DNA of 64,000 nt, from NCBI GenBank assembly GCA_965205945.1, contig CBDBIB010000003.1:162192-226191 (forward strand). The letters are read 5' to 3'. A program made the position numbers and the translations under genes. Source of the stretch: Bdellovibrionales bacterium (GTDB lineage Bacteria > Bdellovibrionota > Bdellovibrionia > Bdellovibrionales > UBA1609). Positions 18,506-32,399 of the stretch are shown here, one piece after another (position 1 is the first letter of the stretch; each line of letters starts with the position of its first letter). The notes under the pieces were generated by a model, which did no database searches, had not been told where the DNA came from, and saw only the letters and a program-made list of their open reading frames with translations.

Positions 18506-20302
18506 TTAAAAATTCTCCTTTTCAAAACCTGGAAATTCATAATTTATAGAAAGTGTATTTAAAGAGGGATCTTCTTCTGGAAGAGTTGAGATTACAACAG
18601 CAATCATATAAGTTGTTCCATTAGGGCCACCATTTAAATCTAAAGTGGTATCTTCGCTTATAGGGCCAAAAATAGATTCTGTTAAATCCTGATAAGTATT
18701 TTTAAAAACATGGAATTTAACATGACCTTCTTTTCCCGGCATGTGACCTGTGGTTGTAGAGGTGATAGAAATAGTTTCAACATTTAATGCAGCAACAGTT
18801 AGAGTGTAGTAATCAATTGAGAGAAGAGGGTGATTATCTGGTAAGTAAGGGTATACTTGAGAAGTATAAGGCTTTTTGAAACTAAAACTTGCAGTAGTAT
18901 TTCCTCGGCGTAGACCTTGTCCATACTGGGCGCGAAAAGTGCCTACAGGCGTGCTAATGGGTTGGGTCATAAAACTATGGGTAAGAAGCCTATTCCAGTT
19001 GCTATCATCTCTAATGGGGGTTAGAGAATCAATACTTTCTAAAAGTAAACCTAAAGAGGCTAAGTGAGCCTTACTATTATTAAAACCTATTTGTGATCCT
19101 GTGCTGCTAAAGGCCTGCCAAAATTCTGGAAAGTAACCACTAACATTGTCAAAATCTTCTTCTGAAGCAGCTTCATTAAATTCAGTGTCATGCATATCCC
19201 AGAGTAATCTTGCAACAGCAAACTCTCGAAATTCACCCTCTCCTTTATGAATAGGGGAGTCAGAACCTTCATTTTCAACAGAAAGTTTAAGACGAAAACC
19301 TGTAGAGCCATCAGAGTTTCCTCGAGTATCAAGCACTGTAGGAATATTTGTTATAAAAGCTTGGTAAAATTGTGCTGCTCCTTCTGACCATGCAGATCTA
19401 GGGTCTAGAATTTGATTTCCGTTATGTGGACCTCCAGGGCTATGATTAACGGAAATGGCAGATTCTAAAAAATGGAAATATTCATGAAGAATAATAGAAT
19501 TGTCAAAGTGATCTGTATCTGTAAAATCGACATCTCCGTTTGAGCCACCAAGTATAAAAATCTTCATTTGAGGTCTTGATAGAAAAGATAACCTTGAGGA
19601 ACTCCCAATATAAATGCTAGGGTTAAAGCCTTTTTCCCAATAAATATCAACTTTTGGAATATCTAAAGGATCAGTTCCCTGTCCAGTAAGACTTGCTTTT
19701 AAGGTATCAAAAGAATTGTGAATTTGATCTAAAATATTAAAAGCTCCACCAATAAGGCTTTTGTCACCCTCAGCTACAAGATTAATATTGGATTGGTTGT
19801 TATTGGAAGTAAAAAAATATTGAATTTTATGGAGCTCATTAGTTTCTGGTGCAATAAAGACACTTGCTTTATTATGCGAATTATTAGAGCGAGCATAAAT
19901 ATTTAAAGATAAGGCTTTGCGGCTTTGTGGAACTTTAAAAGAAAAGTTACCATTACCATCAGTTTCACCACATTGTAAGATCTTACCACTTACATCCATT
20001 ACGTCATATTGAGCATGTCTAATTGGACGGGTATCTTCTGCAATATCTAAAAGTCCTTCATTAGAAGGATCGGTTCCAATAGGTCTATATTCATATGTGG
20101 CTTGTCCAGAGATAAGGTAGCTTGAGTTATGAACGATAGTATTATTGCAGTAAGTTTTTTCTAAAGGGCTTTGCTTCCCTGGTGTCCATGTTCTATTTAT
20201 GATATTATTAGCAACATCAGAGTATTTCTTAGAACCACAGCCCATTAAAGAAAGTACACTTAGAGTTGTTAAAGCACCATTGAGAATAAAGAACTTAACC
20301 AT
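18506..20302 (-). CDS. lipoprotein with HExxH zinc-metalloprotease motif
   Basis: 598 aa. Lipobox LSLMGCGS, an Ig-like motif TDGNGNFSFKVP, and HEYFH followed by SEGAAQF (gluzincin-like third ligand). Confidence 0.55.
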   Translation of the reverse strand: MVKFFILNGALTTLSVLSLMGCGSKKYSDVANNIINRTWTPGKQSPLEKTYCNNTIVHNSSYLISGQATYEYRPIGTDPSNEGLLDIAEDTRPIRHAQYDVMDVSGKILQCGETDGNGNFSFKVPQSRKALSLNIYARSNNSHNKASVFIAPETNELHKIQYFFTSNNNQSNINLVAEGDKSLIGGAFNILDQIHNSFDTLKASLTGQGTDPLDIPKVDIYWEKGFNPSIYIGSSSRLSFLSRPQMKIFILGGSNGDVDFTDTDHFDNSIILHEYFHFLESAISVNHSPGGPHNGNQILDPRSAWSEGAAQFYQAFITNIPTVLDTRGNSDGSTGFRLKLSVENEGSDSPIHKGEGEFREFAVARLLWDMHDTEFNEAASEEDFDNVSGYFPEFWQAFSSTGSQIGFNNSKAHLASLGLLLESIDSLTPIRDDSNWNRLLTHSFMTQPISTPVGTFRAQYGQGLRRGNTTASFSFKKPYTSQVYPYLPDNHPLLSIDYYTLTVAALNVETISITSTTTGHMPGKEGHVKFHVFKNTYQDLTESIFGPISEDTTLDLNGGPNGTTYMIAVVISTLPEEDPSLNTLSINYEFPGFEKENF

Positions 20303-20374: not shown

Positions 20375-20608
20375 ATGGGTTTAAAAGGGAGAAATTCTGA
20401 AATTCTTCATAATGAGGAGCGTTATCATATACAGACTGAAAGCTGGGTTCCTGCTGAAAAGGTTTTAGTGGCACAGGTTTTTAAGGGTGGACAGCTTGTT
20501 TTTAAAAAGAAAGTTACTCTTCAAGAGGTGGGAGGTAATTTTAATGATGCCATTGTTTTAAAAGTACATGAAGATATAATTAAAGAGCTTAAAGAATTGT
20601 TAATTTAA
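20375..20608 (+). CDS. hypothetical protein
   Basis: 77 aa. Strong RBS GGGAGGG upstream. 12 nt before ctpA. Confidence 0.45.
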   Translation: MGLKGRNSEILHNEERYHIQTESWVPAEKVLVAQVFKGGQLVFKKKVTLQEVGGNFNDAIVLKVHEDIIKELKELLI

Positions 20609-20620
20609 TAAAGAGAGATT

Positions 20621-21760
20621 ATGAAATACCTTTTTGTTTTTATATTAGGTGCTGGAGTGAGTTATTTAGTCTTTGGTGTTTCTTTGGGGCACTCAGGAGG
20701 AAGATATGATAAGCTTCGTATTTATACTCAGGTTTTTAATTTAGTAGAAGAGCATTATGTTGAAAAATTAAATATTGAAGAGCTTGTGATATCATCTATT
20801 AGAGGTATTTTAGGAAAACTTGATTCATATTCAGGTTATTTAAATAAGCAAAGGTTTAAGAAATTTAAAAATGAAACTGATGGAGGTTTTAGTGGAATAG
20901 GCTTTGAGCTAGCATTTAAAAAAAGAAATTTAGTGGTAATTAGTGTTGTTGAAGATTCTCCTGCATGGAATGCAGGAATCTTACCAAAAGATCAAATTAT
21001 AAAAATAAATGGTATGAAACTAAATGCTCTAGATTTTATAGAGGCTTCAGGGTTGTTTCCTAAGAAAAATAATAAGAAAGTTAAATTGACAATAATACGT
21101 TCTGGAAAAGATGAACCCTTAGAAGTGATTGTTAGAAAACAAAAGATTAAGATTAATCCGGTTAGAAAGGTATTTAATAAAAAAGGGTTATTGGTTGTTA
21201 GAATCACTAGTTTTTCAACTAATACAAAAAAAGAAATGCAGGCTCTTTTAAAGCAAGAAAAATTTGACAGATTGTTAATTGATCTTAGAAATAATCCGGG
21301 AGGACTTTTAGGTGAAGCCATTGAGGTGGTGGATCTTTTTGTAGAAGAAGGTGTTATTGTAATTACTAAATCACGAAGTCCAAATGATGAAGTAAACTTA
21401 GCAAGAAAAGACAATACGCTTTATCCAACGGTTCCTTTGTATGTGTTAATTGATGATGCTAGTGCTAGTGCTAGTGAAATTGTAGCAAGTTCGTTAAAGG
21501 ATTTAAAAAGAGCTAAGCTTTTTGGGAAAAAAACCTATGGTAAAGGGTCTGTACAAACGGTGATTTCACTTCCTAGAGATCAGGGGGGAATTAAGCTTAC
21601 AATAGCAAGGTATTTTACAACTTTAGGTAAAATGATTGATAAAAAAGGTGTAGAACCGGATTATATTTATCCGAATAAAAAAGAGGATATCTATCCTGTT
21701 AAGAACTTTAAAGAGGATAAAGGTCTTCAATGGGCTATAAAAGAAATTAATAAGCTTTAG
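20621..21760 (+). CDS. ctpA: C-terminal processing peptidase (S41) with PDZ domain
   Basis: 379 aa. N-terminal TM helix, GIGFEL, PDZ SPAWNAGILPKDQIIKING, DLRNNPGGLL, SASASEI and TYGKGSVQ. Confidence 0.85.
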   Translation: MKYLFVFILGAGVSYLVFGVSLGHSGGRYDKLRIYTQVFNLVEEHYVEKLNIEELVISSIRGILGKLDSYSGYLNKQRFKKFKNETDGGFSGIGFELAFKKRNLVVISVVEDSPAWNAGILPKDQIIKINGMKLNALDFIEASGLFPKKNNKKVKLTIIRSGKDEPLEVIVRKQKIKINPVRKVFNKKGLLVVRITSFSTNTKKEMQALLKQEKFDRLLIDLRNNPGGLLGEAIEVVDLFVEEGVIVITKSRSPNDEVNLARKDNTLYPTVPLYVLIDDASASASEIVASSLKDLKRAKLFGKKTYGKGSVQTVISLPRDQGGIKLTIARYFTTLGKMIDKKGVEPDYIYPNKKEDIYPVKNFKEDKGLQWAIKEINKL

Positions 21761-22247
21761 TAGAATTTTTGCACAGTAAACGTTAAGGTGAGATTAAAAA
21801 ATTGATTTTAAGGTGTCGTTGTTAAGCTTAAAATCTTTTTATATGTAATAAAATAGTATTTTTAGTGAAAATCTATTTTTATAAATCTTTTGCATGAAAA
21901 CTGTTAAATAATTAATTTTTTTATAATAAAAAATCAATAAAAGTAAGAATTTTAGAGTTTTTTGTGGCTTAGAAGAGCTAAAAATGAGCGGTTTAAAAGT
22001 AAGGCTCTTTTTAAACCCTTTATAAGAATAAGGCAATTTTATAATAAAGATAACTAATGGTAAGCTAAAAAACATTTTTTAAACAGGTGGGTTTAAATGT
22101 TATTGTTTTTTTAGAAGGAAAAAATTTAGTGTAGAAGATTTTAAATGTCTTTAAGTTTAGAATATAAAACTTGTAATTATGGCTTTGCATAGTGATCAGC
22201 ATATGGTTGAATAATAAGATATTTGAAGATGGGGGAAGTCATTATTT

Positions 22248-22922
22248 ATGATAGATGAGGCAGCATATTTACTTACAGGAACTCCAGTTGATTTAATAAT
22301 GAGATTTTTGTTAGCTTTTGTAGTGGGATCTTCAATAGCAATCTTATATGTTGGAACTTTTCAAGGCTTGTCATTTTCCAAAAACTTTGTGCACTCATTA
22401 GTGTTGAGTCCAATTGTTACAGCTATTGCAATGATGGCAATTGATGGAAGTCTTGCTCGTGGTATTGGTATGATGGGGGCATTCTCTATTTTAAGATTTA
22501 GATCAAATATTAGAGATCCTAGAGATATGTTTTTTCTTTTTGCAAGCTTAGCTTTAGGGATTTCTTGTGGTGTTGGAGCAATAGAGGTTTCTGTTATAGG
22601 ATCGATCGCTTTCATTGGTGCTATTTTAGTTTTATCAAAAGTTCCGTTTTCTCAGACAGCAAGGTTTGATGGAGTGTTAAAATTTTCTATTCAAAGTTAT
22701 TCAGAAAACAAGAGTTTAGTGAATTCTAGTATGGAGAAAATTTGTAAGAGGTATTCTTTGGTTTCTATGAAACAAACCTCACAAGGTGAAATTCTTAATT
22801 ATGTGTATCATATTAGGCTTAAAAAAGGTTTTGCTCAGGATGATCTTGTAAATGAGCTTAAAGCAATTTCAGGATTAGATGGGATTTCTGTATTAGTCAG
22901 AGATCAAGAGGTAGAAATGTAA
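22248..22922 (+). CDS. DUF4956-like membrane protein
   Basis: 224 aa with several TM helices. FSILRFRSNIRDPRDMFFLFASLALGISCG matches the DUF4956 signature as I recall it. Confidence 0.55.
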   Translation: MIDEAAYLLTGTPVDLIMRFLLAFVVGSSIAILYVGTFQGLSFSKNFVHSLVLSPIVTAIAMMAIDGSLARGIGMMGAFSILRFRSNIRDPRDMFFLFASLALGISCGVGAIEVSVIGSIAFIGAILVLSKVPFSQTARFDGVLKFSIQSYSENKSLVNSSMEKICKRYSLVSMKQTSQGEILNYVYHIRLKKGFAQDDLVNELKAISGLDGISVLVRDQEVEM

Positions 22923-23767
22923 TGAATTGGGTTAAAAATAGACAACAAGCTAATAGGGAAGAGGTGTTTTTAATTTCGTTTACAAAATATAATGTTTTTC
23001 TTACTTTGTCTTGGTGTTTTTGTACTGTGCTTTTATTATATTATTTTTTAGCCAAACAATCTGGATACAGATTTATGGGTGTTACGCAGGCCTATCAATA
23101 TAGAGTACAGTTTAAAGAAGCTGTTGTTATAGATGAAATATTAGCTACTTCAGGTCAAGAGGTTAAAAAAGGGGAAACAATATTAAAATTATCTAGCTCA
23201 AAACTCTTATATGATTTAGCAGCGGTTAATATGAAGCTTTATGAAAAATTTTCTAAATATAGACTCTATAATAATATAAAAGATTTAGATAAGTTTGTTA
23301 AAGAGCTTAGGTATAAAAAAGAAAAAACTTTGCTCGAATTAGAAATATTTTCATCGATTAACATTAAAAATATTATTGAAAAACAGATTGAAAAATTAGA
23401 GGTAAAGGCGCCTTTTGATGGTTATCTTGGGAATCTTAATTTTGCCTTAGATGAAATTGTCCCAAGTTTTAATCCTGTTACATTCGTAACAGGAAAAAAT
23501 GCTACAATTATTAAATCATATGTGCTTGAGGATGATCCTGCTGCGGTGAAAGTAAGTATTGGTCAAGAGGTTAATATTTTTAGAGCAGATGGATCTAGAG
23601 GTGGAAAAGGAAAAGTTTTTCAAATAGGAGCTGAAGTTAGAGAGCTTCCAGCAAGATTTCAAAAGACTGGGTATGACAGGATTTATGGACGAGAAATTTT
23701 TGTAAAAATAATAAATGAAGCAGCTTTTATAACAGGTGAAAGGATATTAATTGAGTTTAGTAAATAG
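22922..23767 (+). CDS. HlyD-type periplasmic adaptor (membrane fusion protein)-like
   Basis: 281 aa. N-terminal TM helix, lipoyl-like GQEVKKGETILKL, coiled coil, VKAPFDGYLG and VSIGQEVNIF. TAATG overlap with the upstream gene. Confidence 0.55.
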   Translation: MNWVKNRQQANREEVFLISFTKYNVFLTLSWCFCTVLLLYYFLAKQSGYRFMGVTQAYQYRVQFKEAVVIDEILATSGQEVKKGETILKLSSSKLLYDLAAVNMKLYEKFSKYRLYNNIKDLDKFVKELRYKKEKTLLELEIFSSINIKNIIEKQIEKLEVKAPFDGYLGNLNFALDEIVPSFNPVTFVTGKNATIIKSYVLEDDPAAVKVSIGQEVNIFRADGSRGGKGKVFQIGAEVRELPARFQKTGYDRIYGREIFVKIINEAAFITGERILIEFSK

Positions 23768-24755
23768 GGTTCTTTTTTTAATATTAATTTCACAAGAAGG
23801 TTTTTCGATTTCAAAGGGAACTGTTATGAATAATTTAATTAAAAATATTGAACTAAGAACTCAGTATAATTTTGAGAACGAAGAGTATAATAATACCCTT
23901 AGGTTTAAGCTTGGATCTTTAAAGGTTAGTGCTAAGAATAAAATATTAACTTTAAATGAAAATGAAGAGAGATCACAATTTTTATATATTAAAGCAGAAA
24001 AAAGAATTTCACAGATCCACTCATGGAATAAAATTCAAGTATCAAAAGAATGGAGAGCGGATTTAATAAATGCGTATGATGCATATAAAGAATATTTAAA
24101 ATCTAATCCTGCCGCAATAAGAATTTCTATAGATATTGATGTTAATGAAGTCTTATTTTGGTCTGAAAATCTAACGAATTTAGAAGTTAAAGATAGTTTA
24201 AAAAATGTTTTAACTAAAGACATAGATAAGAAAGCGATTCTAAAAAGTTTGAAAGAAAGGGGTTTTAAAAAACTTTTGTGGATTAAGGATATTTATAAAG
24301 CTGATAATACTTTAATAAAATTTTTAGAGCTAGGAGTTAAGGGAAGTTATAAAAATTCTAGTAAGAATGATTCAGTTGCAAGACTTGGGCTTACTCTTCC
24401 TTTAGGATTTGTGGGTGAAAAGATTGAATCTAGAAATAAAATGATTGTTGATCAGTATAGGATTAAAAGAGAACAGGTCCAAAGAGAATGGGAATTAAAT
24501 AAGGCCTATGAAGAGTTTATATTTAAGAAAGAAATGTATCAACGAGTTGAATCTAATTTTGTTTCAAAGTTGAAAATTAAAAAAATAACTTCTTCAACAT
24601 CTATAAGTGTTGAAGAAAAAATTAAAATTTACTTAGATGCAATAAAAGCATCTTATAAACTTATGGAGTTAAAAGCTGAGGCAGCTGTTTTATACAATAA
24701 GGTTATGCTTCTTGATATGAATATTGATAAAAACAAATTTATTGGTTTGGAGTGA
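23751..24755 (+). CDS. coiled-coil protein of unknown function (possible outer-membrane-factor-like)
   Basis: 334 aa. The TTG start overlaps the upstream gene by 17 nt, with an alternative ATG at 23826. Weak N-terminal hydrophobic stretch. No diagnostic motif recognised. Confidence 0.35.
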   Translation: MSLVNRVLFLILISQEGFSISKGTVMNNLIKNIELRTQYNFENEEYNNTLRFKLGSLKVSAKNKILTLNENEERSQFLYIKAEKRISQIHSWNKIQVSKEWRADLINAYDAYKEYLKSNPAAIRISIDIDVNEVLFWSENLTNLEVKDSLKNVLTKDIDKKAILKSLKERGFKKLLWIKDIYKADNTLIKFLELGVKGSYKNSSKNDSVARLGLTLPLGFVGEKIESRNKMIVDQYRIKREQVQREWELNKAYEEFIFKKEMYQRVESNFVSKLKIKKITSSTSISVEEKIKIYLDAIKASYKLMELKAEAAVLYNKVMLLDMNIDKNKFIGLE

Positions 24756-24759
24756 TTTT

Positions 24760-25554
24760 ATGGATAGTGGTGGCCTAGATAGGAATAAAATTTCTAGATA
24801 CGAGCTTAAATATATTCTTCCTAAAAGTATGGTTTCACAAATTGGAGATTATATTGAAATTTGTTGTCAAAAAGATAACCATTCTTTAAATGTGTGCGAT
24901 GGCTATTATACTGTAAATACGCTTTATCTTGATTCTCCTAATTTTTTACTTTTAGACCACAAGCGTTCAAATATGAGTAAAAGATTTACACTTAGAATTA
25001 GAAGTTATGCAGATGGAGAATCTCCACCATATTTTTTTGAAGTGAAAAAGAAAGCTGGAATGCTAATTAATAAAATTAGAGCATGTGTGAAAGAAAAAGA
25101 TTTATATGAAGTGTTTAAGCATCCAGATGGGGCATTGGGTTTGTCCTTAGAAGATAAGAAGAATTTAAAATATTTTATTCGAAAATCTGAAGAGCTTCAT
25201 GCTCGGCCAAAAATATTTACACAGTATAAAAGACTCGCATATTTTTCGGTTCTTGATGAGTACGTGAGAATCACATTTGATAGAGATCTTAAATTTTGTA
25301 AATCAAAAGTCTTTAATGTTATTCCAGGGCATTATGATACTCAGAATTATGATTATGATATTTTTTTAAAGGGAATGCCGGCAAACAGTGTTGTTTTAGA
25401 AATAAAAACACTGACTTCAGTACCAAAATGGGTGATTGAGTTGATTCAATATTTTGGTTTAGAAAGGGGTTCGTTCTCTAAATTTGAAAGTAGTTTGGAT
25501 GAAGCTTCTGGTATTCAAGATGAAGAGCTCTTTTCATTAAGTTCAGTGAATTAA
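24760..25554 (+). CDS. VTC-domain (polyphosphate polymerase-like, CYTH superfamily) protein
   Basis: RYELKYILP, NTLYLDSP, LRIRSY, YFFEVKKK and VRITFDRDL. Start placed at the ATG at 24760 (track ORF starts at 24724). Confidence 0.6.
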   Translation: MDSGGLDRNKISRYELKYILPKSMVSQIGDYIEICCQKDNHSLNVCDGYYTVNTLYLDSPNFLLLDHKRSNMSKRFTLRIRSYADGESPPYFFEVKKKAGMLINKIRACVKEKDLYEVFKHPDGALGLSLEDKKNLKYFIRKSEELHARPKIFTQYKRLAYFSVLDEYVRITFDRDLKFCKSKVFNVIPGHYDTQNYDYDIFLKGMPANSVVLEIKTLTSVPKWVIELIQYFGLERGSFSKFESSLDEASGIQDEELFSLSSVN

Positions 25555-28765: not shown

Positions 28766-29500
28766 ATGGGGCTTTATTTTTTTTCAGGTAAGGGTGGTGT
28801 TGGAAAAACGCATCTATCAACAAGCTTTGCTTTTCATAGGGTAGGGCTTAGAAGAAGAGTTTTGCTCATAGAATTTTCACAACTTGCTCAATACTCAGGG
28901 TATTTTCAGTTAGAAGTTGGTTTTAAACCTAAAGAGCTTAAAAAAGATTTATTTTTGTCTACTTGGACGGGTATAGATTGTTTGAAAGAATATGGAGTAA
29001 AAGTTTTAAAATCTCAAAGAGCTTTAGAGCTTTTTATGAAGATACCATTAATGGGAAAGCTAATCAATATTGCTCCAGGCTTAAAAGAAATTTCTGTTTT
29101 AGGAAAACTTACCTCAGACTACCGGAATATAAATTTTACTACAGGTTTTGATGATATTATTTTTGACGCTCCAGCATCAGGACATTTTGTATCTTTATTA
29201 CAAGCACCTCAAGGTCTTCAGGGAATTGTGGGTGTAGGTGCTATAAAGAAGCAAAGTGTGGATATTTTAAACTGCCTTAAGAAAAGTAAGAATGTTTTTA
29301 TTGGTTTAGTTGGGGACGGTTCAAAGTTTTCATATAAAGAAAGACTAGAGACTAAGAGTAAAATTAAGAAGATTTTAGGAGATAAAAAAATTGTGGATCT
29401 TAATAATTTTTCAAAAGAATTTCCTAGAATTCGTACAGGTGATTGGATTAAGAGCGCAAAAGCGATTTCACCATATTGGCAACATTTTTTATGGAGTTAG
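28766..29500 (+). CDS. ArsA/Get3-family ATPase, half-size
   Basis: 244 aa. Deviant Walker A GKGGVGKT and switch II FDAPASGH (DTAPTGH pattern). Confidence 0.6.
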   Translation: MGLYFFSGKGGVGKTHLSTSFAFHRVGLRRRVLLIEFSQLAQYSGYFQLEVGFKPKELKKDLFLSTWTGIDCLKEYGVKVLKSQRALELFMKIPLMGKLINIAPGLKEISVLGKLTSDYRNINFTTGFDDIIFDAPASGHFVSLLQAPQGLQGIVGVGAIKKQSVDILNCLKKSKNVFIGLVGDGSKFSYKERLETKSKIKKILGDKKIVDLNNFSKEFPRIRTGDWIKSAKAISPYWQHFLWS

Positions 29501-30447
29501 AGAAAAAAACTAAAATTTTTTTAGGAACAGGAGGAATTGGTAAAACAACGCTTTCAACAGTGTACGCAATTAAAATGGCAAAAAAATTTTCAGATAAAAC
29601 GATAAAGCTTGTAACCATAGATCCATCAAAAAGAATAAAAGATTATTTTAACATGACTTTTAATGAAAGTGAAAAGAAAATTGATAATCTAGTGGTGTCA
29701 GTAAATAACCGTGAAGATTTAATGAGAGCTTTTATATCTGAAGTTTATCAAGACAATGAAAAAGAAATTAAAAAAATTTATGACAATAAGATTTTTCAAA
29801 ATCTTATTACAGGACTTATAGTTTCTCAGGAATTTACATCGTTATATGAACTTTATAAAAATAATCAAGATGAAATAGATTTAGTAATAATAGATACTCC
29901 GCCTTTACAAAATGTAGGTTTGTTTTTAAATGGAGCAAGTGAGCTGGAGTTATTTTTCTCTTTTTCCTTGGCTCAGTTTTTTATTTCTAAAGAAAATTTA
30001 AATTTTTTTCAGAAATTTTTCTTTAAAGTAAAGAAAAAAGCTTTAATGACACTGTCAAGTTTAACAGGAGAAAGTTTTGTTAATGAACTTGTTCAATTTT
30101 TTATTGCTATTGAAAAACTAAGACCTCGACTTTTAGAAGTACTTAGGTTTTCTAAGGAAATCTTAAATACAAAGACAGAAATAATATACGTATGCGGTTA
30201 TAACGAGCTTTCACTTTCTGGTCTGCGGGTTTCTCTTCAAGATCTTAAGAAACAGGGGTTAAGCATTGATAAGTGTTTTGTGAATAAATATGATAAGAAA
30301 ATTAAATATGAAAATTTTGTTAAAATGAAAATGAAGCAAGTAAAAGAGGAAAATAAGGAGCTTAACTTTCATATGATTGAAAAATTTTCTTTTGAACTTT
30401 TAAATTATAAAGATTTAAGGGAAGCCGGAGACTATGTTAAAATCTAG
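29491..30447 (+). CDS. ArsA/Get3-family ATPase paralogue, degenerate switch II
   Basis: P-loop GTGGIGKTT is present, but the DTAPTGH position reads IDTPPLQN. Start placed at the ATG at 29491 (track uses a TTG at 29476). Overlaps the upstream gene by 10 nt. Confidence 0.55.
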   Translation: MELEKKTKIFLGTGGIGKTTLSTVYAIKMAKKFSDKTIKLVTIDPSKRIKDYFNMTFNESEKKIDNLVVSVNNREDLMRAFISEVYQDNEKEIKKIYDNKIFQNLITGLIVSQEFTSLYELYKNNQDEIDLVIIDTPPLQNVGLFLNGASELELFFSFSLAQFFISKENLNFFQKFFFKVKKKALMTLSSLTGESFVNELVQFFIAIEKLRPRLLEVLRFSKEILNTKTEIIYVCGYNELSLSGLRVSLQDLKKQGLSIDKCFVNKYDKKIKYENFVKMKMKQVKEENKELNFHMIEKFSFELLNYKDLREAGDYVKI

Positions 30448-31207
30448 ACAAGCTATACTTTTAAAAAAACCACAAACTTTTATAAGAGGTATGATGATAC
30501 TGGTTTTAGGATTTAGGCATGCTCTTTTAAATAAAAATTTATTAGTGTTGGCACTTATACCTGTTTTAGTAGCGGCTATAGGTTTATTTTTTGGGTTTAA
30601 GCCTTTATTTAGAATTTATTTATCCGAAAGTGCTGGGATTTTTCTTGATAAGGAGATTTTTGATTTTTGGGGAGGAGCTATATTTTTATGGATAGGCAAA
30701 TTTATACTTAAAATTTTTATAGTTTTTTTAACTTTTCTAACTTTTTATATTCTTTTACAGGTTATTTATATTCCAATTTGTTCTTTATTAGCTGAAAAAG
30801 TGTTATTAAGAAAAGGCATTATTAGGTGTCAATCCATTAAAGAAGCATTAGGTTTTAATTTAAGAATGTTTAAAATGAGTTTAATAAAATCTGGAGTTCT
30901 AATTTTTGCTGGATTTTTTTTCTTTATAGGTTCATTTGTTCCAGGTTTAGGTTTTGTATCAGTTTATTTTACCTTAATAGTCTTAGCCTATGACAGTTTT
31001 GATTATGGTTTAGAGCTCTACGGTTTAAACCTTAAAGATCGAATACTATTTATAAAAAAAAATTTTATGCTCATTAATGGACATGTAGGAGCCTTGCTTT
31101 TATTTAGTTTTATTCCAGGTTTAATATTACTAATATTTCCATTCTCAGTAATAGGTGCTAGTTTATTTATAGGAGAATTTAATGGATTTAAAAAAAAAAT
31201 TACATAA
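30434..31207 (+). CDS. EI24/CysZ-family membrane protein-like
   Basis: 257 aa polytopic protein. N-terminal pattern GFRHALLNKNLLVLALIPVLV resembles the CysZ/EI24 family. GGAG RBS. 14-nt overlap with the upstream gene. Confidence 0.45.
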   Translation: MLKSRQAILLKKPQTFIRGMMILVLGFRHALLNKNLLVLALIPVLVAAIGLFFGFKPLFRIYLSESAGIFLDKEIFDFWGGAIFLWIGKFILKIFIVFLTFLTFYILLQVIYIPICSLLAEKVLLRKGIIRCQSIKEALGFNLRMFKMSLIKSGVLIFAGFFFFIGSFVPGLGFVSVYFTLIVLAYDSFDYGLELYGLNLKDRILFIKKNFMLINGHVGALLLFSFIPGLILLIFPFSVIGASLFIGEFNGFKKKIT

Positions 31208-32399
31208 TATCTTTTTAAATAAAGAAATTAAAATTCAAGAGTGGTTTTTAAGAAAAATAGAGTCTAAAGACTTCCCTTTTTATTGTAGCTTTGATATTCG
31301 TGAATCTAATAATAAATTAGCACCGGTAGATGCAAATTTATTTCCCGCAGGGTTTAATAATATTTGTCAAGATGATCGTAGTACAATGGGTGATTTATTA
31401 AAAAAATGTACAGAATTTAAAAAATTAAATTTTAAGAATGTAGCTATTTTTTGTGAAGAACATACAAGCAATCTATATTATTGGGATAATGTGGGAGCTT
31501 TAATCACTCTTTTTAAAAGAGAAGGAATTACTCCTTTTGTGGTGCTGCCTAGTTTAAACTTAAAAATTAAAACTATTGAATCTGCATCGGGGATGCAAAT
31601 TAAGATAAATAAAGTGGAGATTAAAGAAGGAGGAGTCCTTTTCGTAGATGGGGTTAAAATAGATTTTCTTGTAAGCAACAATGATTTTTCTACAGCATTT
31701 GATTCTTGGATTAAAGATGTAAAAATACCGCAAGTTCCTCCGCTTAAAATGGGTTGGCATAAAAGAAGAAAGCATACTTTTTTTAAAATTTATAATGAAT
31801 TGGTAGAGGATTTTTCAAAAATTATAGGGCTAAATTCCTTTCATTTAAGAGTTGAAACTTATAACTATGATAAATTTGATATAGAAAACAAAGAGTCTTT
31901 AGTAAAGCTTTCAGATGAGATTGTAGGCTTTAAGGATAAACTTAATAAAAAATATAGAGAGCATAATGTTAAAGAAGAACCGTACTTTTTTATAAAAAAT
32001 TCTTTTGGAACTTATGGTATAGGTGTTATTGAAGTGAAATCTCCTAAAGATATTTTAAATTGGAATTATAAAGCTAGAAAAAAAATGAAAGCCACAAAAG
32101 GTGGTGGACGCTTTAATTCAGTGATTATTCAAGAAGGTATACCGACAACACTAAAAATAAATGAGGAGTCAGCAGAAGCAGTGATTTATTTACTTGGTTG
32201 TGGACTGGCTGGTGGGTTTTTAAGAACCCATGGGAGAAAAGGGGGGAGAGACAGTTTAAATACTCCAGGTGCTGTGTTTCAAAGAATGTGTTTTTCTGAT
32301 TACGAATTTCAAAAAGAAAGCAAAATGCTTGAAAATGTTTATGGCACCGTTGCAAGGCTTGGTGCTTTAGCTTTGAGTATGGAGATTGAGCAAGGTTAA
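31182..32399 (+). CDS. gshA: glutamate--cysteine ligase, rare GshA (T. ferrooxidans-type) family
   Basis: 405 aa. FPFYCSFDIRESNNKLAPVDANLFPAGFNNI matches my recollection of this GshA family. AGGAG RBS. 26-nt overlap with the upstream gene. Confidence 0.5.
   Translation: MDLKKKLHNIFLNKEIKIQEWFLRKIESKDFPFYCSFDIRESNNKLAPVDANLFPAGFNNICQDDRSTMGDLLKKCTEFKKLNFKNVAIFCEEHTSNLYYWDNVGALITLFKREGITPFVVLPSLNLKIKTIESASGMQIKINKVEIKEGGVLFVDGVKIDFLVSNNDFSTAFDSWIKDVKIPQVPPLKMGWHKRRKHTFFKIYNELVEDFSKIIGLNSFHLRVETYNYDKFDIENKESLVKLSDEIVGFKDKLNKKYREHNVKEEPYFFIKNSFGTYGIGVIEVKSPKDILNWNYKARKKMKATKGGGRFNSVIIQEGIPTTLKINEESAEAVIYLLGCGLAGGFLRTHGRKGGRDSLNTPGAVFQRMCFSDYEFQKESKMLENVYGTVARLGALALSMEIEQG

Follow-up and report, generated by a model that had tools for sequence, protein, structure and literature searches.

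A four-gene operon joining a VTC domain and a DUF4956 membrane protein to a periplasmic adaptor and a TolC-like protein: a candidate polyphosphate synthase-exporter of diderm bacteria

Bacterial polyphosphate (polyP) is currently credited to PPK1 and PPK2, and a 2025 review still treats VTC as a eukaryote-type enzyme. Here we analyse an operon in a 64,000-nucleotide stretch of DNA from a Bdellovibrionales bacterium (GenBank assembly GCA_965205945.1, contig CBDBIB010000003.1, positions 162,192 to 226,191 of the forward strand; hereafter the window), which has a G+C content of ~30%. Its four open reading frames (ORFs) encode a DUF4956 membrane protein (ORF1), a periplasmic adaptor (ORF2), a TolC-like protein (ORF3) and a stand-alone VTC domain (ORF4). 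These are known modules in an undescribed combination, and the combination is widespread. It is highly probable that the four proteins act together. Our preferred reading, to which we give an even chance, is that the four genes form one envelope-spanning polyP synthase-exporter.

The closest described polymerase is the eukaryotic VTC complex, represented by yeast Vtc4/Vtc3/Vtc1 (PDB 7YTJ, 8I6V). The two have in common the catalytic tunnel domain, with all of its triphosphate- and Mn-binding residues, and a proposed logic in which the polymerase works on a membrane partner and synthesis is coupled to passage through the membrane. The eukaryotic complex, however, has an SPX domain and a C-terminal three-helix transmembrane (TM) domain that forms the channel, whereas ORF4 has neither. 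The membrane partner here is instead a DUF4956/MgtC-like protein that carries an ACT-like domain and in which no similarity to the TM region of Vtc1/3/4 could be detected, and the proposed target is the cell exterior, via the adaptor and the TolC-like channel, rather than the vacuole lumen as in yeast.

The two middle genes recall the tripartite efflux and type I secretion systems EmrAB-TolC, MacAB-TolC and HlyBD-TolC, with which the operon shares a predicted membrane-anchored adaptor (lipoyl domain, putative short hairpin and beta-barrel), a predicted TolC-fold outer-membrane factor, and genes that are adjacent and translationally coupled. Those systems are energised by an ABC (ATP-binding cassette), MFS (major facilitator superfamily) or RND (resistance-nodulation-division) pump, whereas none is encoded in the operon or nearby. 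Moreover, both proteins are unusually small, the adaptor with 281 amino acids (aa) and the outer-membrane factor with 334 aa where ~430-490 aa is usual, and the cargo is presumed to be a polymer synthesised on the spot.

The same VTC and DUF4956 pair is found with CotH in sets by the pel loci of Gram-positive bacteria, where DUF4956 was described as four to five TM helices plus an ACT domain and the VTC catalytic residues were noted to be intact (bioRxiv 10.1101/768473; 10.1101/2024.04.20.589940). Unlike the operon, these sets include neither an adaptor nor an outer-membrane component, and in those studies the polyP was proposed to be cytoplasmic; the sole functional comment that we found in the literature, from the S. 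intermedius pel study, is that polyP stays in the cytoplasm. CotH occurs in the pel-linked sets and in many diderm clusters, whereas the 64-kb window has none. Full-text literature searches returned no paper tying VTC or DUF4956 to an adaptor or a TolC-type system. Conceptually, a parallel is the synthase-dependent secretion of exopolysaccharides (alginate, cellulose, Pel and poly-N-acetylglucosamine), in which an inner-membrane-associated polymerase is coupled to periplasmic and outer-membrane export parts and the polymer is extruded as it is made, although the proteins and the chemistry are unrelated.

Four translationally coupled genes

The ORF calls for the window place all four genes on one strand (Table 1) at the coordinates of the original prediction, which was made from the letters of the window, and reading of the junctions bore out the close packing that it had described. 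ORF1 and ORF2 overlap by 1 nt in a TAATG at 22922. ORF3 starts at TTG 23751, 17 nt within ORF2 and just behind the ribosome-binding site (RBS) GGTGAAAGG; its TGA ends at 24755 and is followed, after 4 nt, by ATG 24760. We take this ATG, and not the upstream TTG at 24724, as the real start of ORF4 because its homologs all begin M(N/D)SGGLDRNK. The four genes are translationally coupled, and their tight packing is not due to chance, since the four-gene order is kept in diverged relatives and between different flanks. In close Bdellovibrionales metagenome-assembled genomes (MAGs), the order DUF4956-adaptor-ORF3-VTC lies between the genes for an S41 peptidase and methionyl-tRNA synthetase, with identities to the window proteins from 40-50% (ORF3) up to 84% (ORF4). 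A cassette of the same order stands in another context, flanked by a CBS-domain gene and dnaJ, at two of the loci surveyed below (L004 and L005), and a third (L007) keeps the order at 40% VTC identity, which upholds the conservation of gene order among relatives.

Table 1. The leader and the four genes of the operon, with positions in the window.
Feature	Position	Strand	Assignment	Basis
Leader	21761..22247	+	487 bp, AT-rich and ORF-free; presumed promoter/5' untranslated region; ends in RBS GGGGGAAG	
ORF1	22248..22922	+	224 aa, DUF4956 (MgtC/YhiD-like) inner-membrane protein	Pfam, AlphaFold2, hydropathy
ORF2	22922..23767	+	281 aa, minimal membrane-anchored EmrA/HlyD-type adaptor (membrane-fusion protein)	Pfam, NCBIfam, PDB profile
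ORF3	23751..24755	+	334 aa, predicted compact TolC-like outer-membrane factor	AlphaFold2, Foldseek, hidden Markov model (HMM) of positional equivalents
ORF4	24760..25554	+	264 aa, soluble stand-alone VTC (triphosphate-tunnel) domain, predicted polyP polymerase	Pfam, residue alignment

The leader is AT-rich and free of ORFs, as originally described (G+C ~0.23), and is far longer than the 110-136 bp found in the closest relatives. A regulatory RNA or repeat within it was considered and rejected: the best hit of an Rfam scan (E 0.063; 15.5 bits, gathering score 60) was no better than chance, a search for direct repeats found none, and promoter- and terminator-like sites were not enriched. No RNA family, repeat or coding potential accounts for the ~350 bp of extra length.

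Families and folds of the four proteins

The assignments of ORF4 to VTC and of ORF1 to DUF4956 in the original prediction agree with the Pfam models, both of which are matched above their cut-offs. For ORF4 the match to VTC (PF09359) has an E-value of 3.4e-35 and 122 bits (cut-off 23) and covers model positions 2-230 of 235; the protein consists of this domain only, with no TM segment by hydropathy. A profile of 43 bacterial ORF4 homologs, compared with the PDB, finds Vtc4 at 1.5e-22 and the inactive Vtc2/Vtc3 at 1e-9 to 1e-11. Cryo-electron microscopy of the yeast complex has identified K200, R264, R266, K281, Y359, R361, E426, S457 and K458 as needed for polyP synthesis by Vtc4, with K458 alone being different in the inactive paralogs (bioRxiv 10.1101/2023.01.27.525886). 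ORF4 has nine of the nine, as K17, R79, R81, K96, Y156, R158, E214, S240 and K241, in the same order as the yeast list. Across the 43 bacterial homologs eight of these positions are invariant and the equivalent of S457 is Ser in 36; the equivalent of K458 is K in every one of the 43, whereas it is I or L in the inactive Vtc2/3.

Other members of the CYTH/triphosphate tunnel metalloenzyme superfamily are triphosphatases, thiamine triphosphatase and adenylyl cyclases, which rely on the same basic residues in the tunnel, and the VTC/DUF4956 pair co-occurs with CotH kinases and polysaccharide (pel) loci. ORF4 might therefore be a triphosphate-tunnel hydrolase, a cyclase or a phosphate/polyphosphate transferase, in a system that exports or modifies another product, for example an envelope or matrix component that is phosphorylated. 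We consider this unlikely, because the match of ORF4 is VTC-specific, the profile favours catalytic Vtc4 over Vtc2/3, and the lysine that separates active Vtc4 from its inactive paralogs is invariant. A Myxococcota locus (L057; MAG JASDVF010000040.1, 5883-9701) also argues against it. There, a tight VTC-DUF4956-adaptor set is followed, at the position of the TolC-like gene, by the gene for a 484-aa phosphate-selective porin (Porin_O_P, E 4.9e-48), which suggests that a phosphate-rich anion passes through the outer membrane.

ORF1 fits the family model for DUF4956 (PF16316; E 2.6e-13, 50.5 bits, cut-off 30.6) and matches MgtC models weakly (Pfam 0.0015; NCBIfam MgtC/SapB 6.7e-7, the latter below its cut-off). 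Its AlphaFold2 model (pLDDT 77, from a 40-sequence alignment) has five helices followed by a C-terminal beta-alpha-beta-beta-alpha-beta domain, cytoplasmic by prediction, whose Foldseek matches in the PDB are ACT and other ferredoxin-like domains. Three of the helices are strongly hydrophobic by hydropathy. The remaining pair, 69-85 and 91-108, is amphipathic and, in the conservation alignment, bears the invariant G72/G74, R83-F-R85 and D90-P-R-D93, with the R83 to D93 motif placed where the two helices adjoin. A resemblance of DUF4956 to the Vtc1/3/4 channel or to any known transporter found no support, as Foldseek and the PDB profile search matched the ACT-like domain only.

The reading of ORF2 as a membrane-fusion adaptor likewise held up. 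The protein passes HlyD_3 narrowly (23.3 bits, cut-off 22.2) and has significant matches, though below the curated cut-offs, to HlyD_D23 (2.3e-4) and TIGR01730 RND_mfp (E 2.9e-11); its homologs in relatives match BSH_CzcB. When a profile of ORF2 and 15 short relatives was compared with the PDB, it matched solved EmrA at 1.1e-27 and MacA at ~1e-13, and also LipC, HlyD and MexJ. Judged by these profiles, ORF2 is a genuine membrane-fusion adaptor that most resembles the EmrA type. A single N-terminal TM segment (residues 25-43 by hydropathy) would anchor it, and it has a lipoyl/barrel-sandwich domain with a putative short hairpin, a beta-barrel domain and no membrane-proximal domain; in alignment, the hairpin region is very short against that of relatives of 360-380 aa. 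EmrA-type adaptors as a group have no membrane-proximal domain, and such an adaptor would suit an inner-membrane partner without a periplasmic domain.

Much longer adaptors, of 590-737 aa, occur in Bdellovibrio, Halobacteriovorax and Desulfobacterales (L022:5045-6829 in B. bacteriovorus s4, NZ_CP168974; L016:4992-6764, L019:4526-6721 and others). They carry a conserved extra C-terminal domain of ~340 aa, which ORF2 of the window is without. This domain gave sub-threshold matches only, to beta-propeller families (Phytase-like, DUF3616, DUF6910 and DUF6929), and a PDB search with it was empty.

ORF3 had been presented as a protein of unknown fold and a possible outer partner. The first description can now be sharpened, since structure prediction and Foldseek give it a TolC-like topology; the second agrees with its being a predicted outer-membrane factor. 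Word-based searches and an exhaustive profile search of 1.8 billion representatives found homologs of ORF3 in 7 clusters only. In the AlphaFold2 model (pLDDT 76, pTM 0.67), an N-terminus that is signal-peptide-like by inspection is followed by a hairpin (33-56), a long helix (60-118), further helices, a second hairpin (189-215) and long helices (221-321), and these two beta-hairpin plus long-helix repeats match the duplicated TolC repeat. The top 38 Foldseek matches in the PDB are all outer-membrane factors (TolC, ST50, SilC, CmeC, OprM, CusC, MtrE, VceC and OprN), with a best E of 1.5e-8.

Proteins encoded at the same position in other genomes point the same way. At two loci (L009 and L066) the fourth gene encodes a bona fide Pfam OEP protein (5.8e-17 and 2e-16), and an HMM of 23 same-position proteins finds that of L066 at 1.4e-6. 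A 34-member HMM of positional equivalents, which includes the L066 protein and no sequence of the ORF3 family, matches seven of seven ORF3-family members colinearly (E 6.7e-5 for ORF3 of the window and 2e-10 for the best member), while hhalign to the cluster of positional equivalents gives a probability of 50% and an E of 1.6e-4. From these models and profiles we predict that ORF3 is a highly divergent member of the TolC family, reduced in length, and an outer-membrane channel. Two further ideas were tried and dropped. An internal sequence repeat found no support, as hhalign of the two halves was empty and the duplication is visible in the predicted structure only; basic charge as the signature of a polyanion duct proved uninformative, the ORF3 family having an isoelectric point (pI) of ~9.5 against a median of 9.1 for the window proteome.

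Distribution of the gene set and a proposed mechanism

To survey the gene set, one genome per GTDB species was scanned and 79 loci with an ORF4 relative were annotated by iterated HMMs on six-frame ORFs, a feature being counted when it lay on the same strand within 6 kb. Retrieval was by two peptide patterns, so the sample is biased to ORF4 relatives and its fractions, which are not a census, are as follows: DUF4956 is present in 71 of the 79 loci, the adaptor in 50, a TolC-like gene in 41, all four genes in 36, and a CotH kinase in 30 (11 of these with an adaptor). The full set is found in 18 of 21 Bdellovibrionota, among them Bdellovibrio bacteriovorus s4 and Pseudobdellovibrio with complete genomes, in Halobacteriovorax, and in six of seven Desulfobacterota (Desulfonema magnum, Desulfoluna limicola and Desulfatirhabdium), as well as in Fibrobacterota and 'Deltaproteobacteria' MAGs; VTC-DUF4956-adaptor loci occur in Balneolaceae, Hydrogenedentota, Planctomycetota and Myxococcota. 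Rotation of a single cycle yields the three common gene orders: DUF4956-adaptor-outer-membrane factor-VTC, adaptor-outer-membrane factor-VTC-DUF4956, and VTC-DUF4956-adaptor-outer-membrane factor. The original prediction had allowed that the two middle genes might be a fortuitous insertion in the window; relatives from several diderm phyla keep both of them with the VTC/DUF4956 pair.

A few records in the survey call for comment. Apparent DUF4956-VTC fusions in the six-frame table (L085 and L088) were rejected, as reading of the ORFs revealed separate overlapping genes and an out-of-frame artefact in high-GC DNA. Loci from MAGs labelled Sulfitobacter (L016) and Bifidobacterium (L040 and L041) match the layout of Halobacteriovorax (L017) or have diderm-type adaptor and TolC-like genes; these labels probably reflect errors of binning.

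The adaptor and the TolC-like protein could instead serve an ABC, MFS or RND pump encoded elsewhere, their linkage to VTC/DUF4956 reflecting co-regulation, for example under phosphate or envelope stress. Adaptors are established only as partners of such pumps, and to our knowledge no transport activity has been demonstrated for DUF4956. In an Oligoflexia/Bdellovibrionales subgroup (L044, L012, L013 and L015), an ABC transporter or ATPase gene indeed lies directly after VTC, and in these genomes an ABC transporter is a possible alternative partner of the adaptor. Nonetheless, an adjacent ABC transporter is found in only 4 of the 79 loci. In the window, no ABC, RND or MFS pump lies within ~10 kb of the operon, and an HMM search for ABC and CotH genes across the whole 64 kb gave no match. 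Furthermore, the linkage of the adaptor to VTC/DUF4956 holds through three rotated orders, several phyla and overlapping start and stop codons. We therefore doubt that a pump encoded elsewhere is the partner, and the lack of a conventional pump nearby supports DUF4956 in that role.

In the synthase-exporter that we favour, cytoplasmic ORF4 would polymerise polyP from ATP like yeast Vtc4, working at the inner membrane with ORF1, which would be an oligomeric MgtC-like membrane protein. The growing chain would be received by a conserved, arginine-rich cytoplasmic loop and the amphipathic helices of ORF1 and handed on across the membrane. ORF2, with its inner-membrane anchor, would span the periplasm to ORF3, which would form a short, trimeric TolC-like channel in the outer membrane, and the polymer would be released at the cell surface or outside, with no build-up in the cytoplasm or periplasm. 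The comparative tests support an envelope-spanning polyP machine of the kind originally suggested; we infer that its parts form a physical complex, that its product would be polyP, that DUF4956 would be the conduit and that transport would run outwards.

Several observations, besides the bias of the sample, weigh against a synthase-exporter. In about one third of the sampled loci, as in every monoderm case described in the literature, VTC/DUF4956 lacks an adaptor and is usually accompanied by CotH, which implies that the pair has a function needing no outer-membrane route. In the searchable literature we found no enzyme assay or other experimental evidence for any bacterial VTC protein. MgtC proteins, the closest kin of DUF4956, are known as regulators and not as channels, and the membrane part of ORF1 has no Foldseek or PDB-profile match to the TM channel of Vtc1/3/4 or to any solved transporter. 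Neither Pfam nor NCBIfam gives a match for ORF3, which misses the threshold of OEP (PF02321), its Foldseek TM-scores are modest (0.35-0.51), and the wider TolC-like family, with a median pI of 6.4, has no consistent basic bulk charge.

PolyP might also be made or regulated only in the cell or periplasm, with DUF4956 as an MgtC-like anchor or regulator and the adaptor and TolC-like protein as a scaffold or uptake gate in the periplasm or outer membrane. The kinship of ORF1 with MgtC and the cytoplasmic retention proposed in the S. intermedius pel study would fit this arrangement, and the beta-propeller-like domain of the long adaptors, with its weak phytase-like matches, could bind or process a periplasmic phosphate compound. 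Yet every adaptor-plus-TolC assembly so far characterised is known to work as an outward conduit, and a purely cytoplasmic product would give no reason for a conserved linkage to two envelope proteins; we regard an internal role as quite improbable.

If a polyP synthase-exporter is indeed encoded, it would be a third bacterial route to polyP and the first polyP export pathway, and adaptor/TolC systems would gain DUF4956 as a new class of partner in the inner membrane. It would also give DUF4956 a function, offer a clue to the MgtC family, possibly link these genes to the secreted CotH kinases, and bear on where the VTC complex of eukaryotes arose. More tentatively, and with the odds in our view against it, the operon may represent a dedicated polyP secretion system in many diderms, VTC being an ancestral bacterial synthase-translocase and not confined to eukaryotes. 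Because secreted CotH kinases co-occur often, exported polyP could then serve as phosphoryl donor or substrate for these extracytoplasmic kinases, which have no ATP there. As the gene set is present in Desulfonema/Desulfoluna isolates and in the predator Bdellovibrio bacteriovorus, which is in culture and genetically tractable, these ideas are directly testable.

Other genes at the sampled loci and in the window

CotH kinase genes adjoin VTC/DUF4956 with or without an adaptor (L019:2124-4529, L025:3183-4592, L066:7430-10507, L009:10951-12885 and 26 more loci), and some of them carry Lamin-tail or DUF2334 domains. Loci that combine CotH with an adaptor include those of Desulfonema and Desulfoluna, L066 and L009. 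At L034 and L035 a PPDK_N protein (phosphoenolpyruvate-utilising, ATP-binding) takes the position of CotH upstream of the adaptor. Verrucomicrobiota, Chloroflexota and Vibrio loci have VTC with a CotH or CotH-like gene, mostly with DUF4956 too, and no adaptor, in agreement with the CotH-containing sets by Gram-positive pel loci; among them, the cultured Vibrio hepatarius, V. pectenicida and V. zhanjiangensis (L074, L079 and L080) have DUF4956, an 873-aa weakly CotH-like protein (E 1.2e-5) and a VTC-like gene.

The genes after VTC vary as well. At L044 (8955-12704) VTC is directly followed by the gene for a fused ABC transporter of 1249 aa, with two ABC_membrane and two ABC_tran matches, and at L015 (8838-9710) by an ABC ATPase gene and then a 1203-aa ORF. 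At L006 (6001-11186) and in a Desulfosarcina MAG (L027), VTC-DUF4956 is followed by two Cthe_2159 carbohydrate-binding/beta-helix proteins (E ~1e-97 to 1e-103), which replace the adaptor and the TolC-like gene.

In the window itself, a gene two upstream of the operon on the opposite strand (18506-20302, minus strand) encodes a predicted lipoprotein of 598 aa (N-terminus ...SLMGCGS) that belongs to no Pfam family and contains the HExxH-like motif LHEYFHFLE; it is conserved at the same position in L001 and L003. A 77-aa ORF (20375-20608, plus strand), which has no family match, lies directly upstream of an S41/CtpB-like peptidase gene (20621-21760); L001 and L003 also have a 77-aa gene called at this position. 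Downstream (28766-32399, plus strand), what is apparently one unit consists of two tandem ArsA-like ATPase genes and, after them, the genes for a CysZ/EI24-like membrane protein and a GshA-type glutamate-cysteine ligase.

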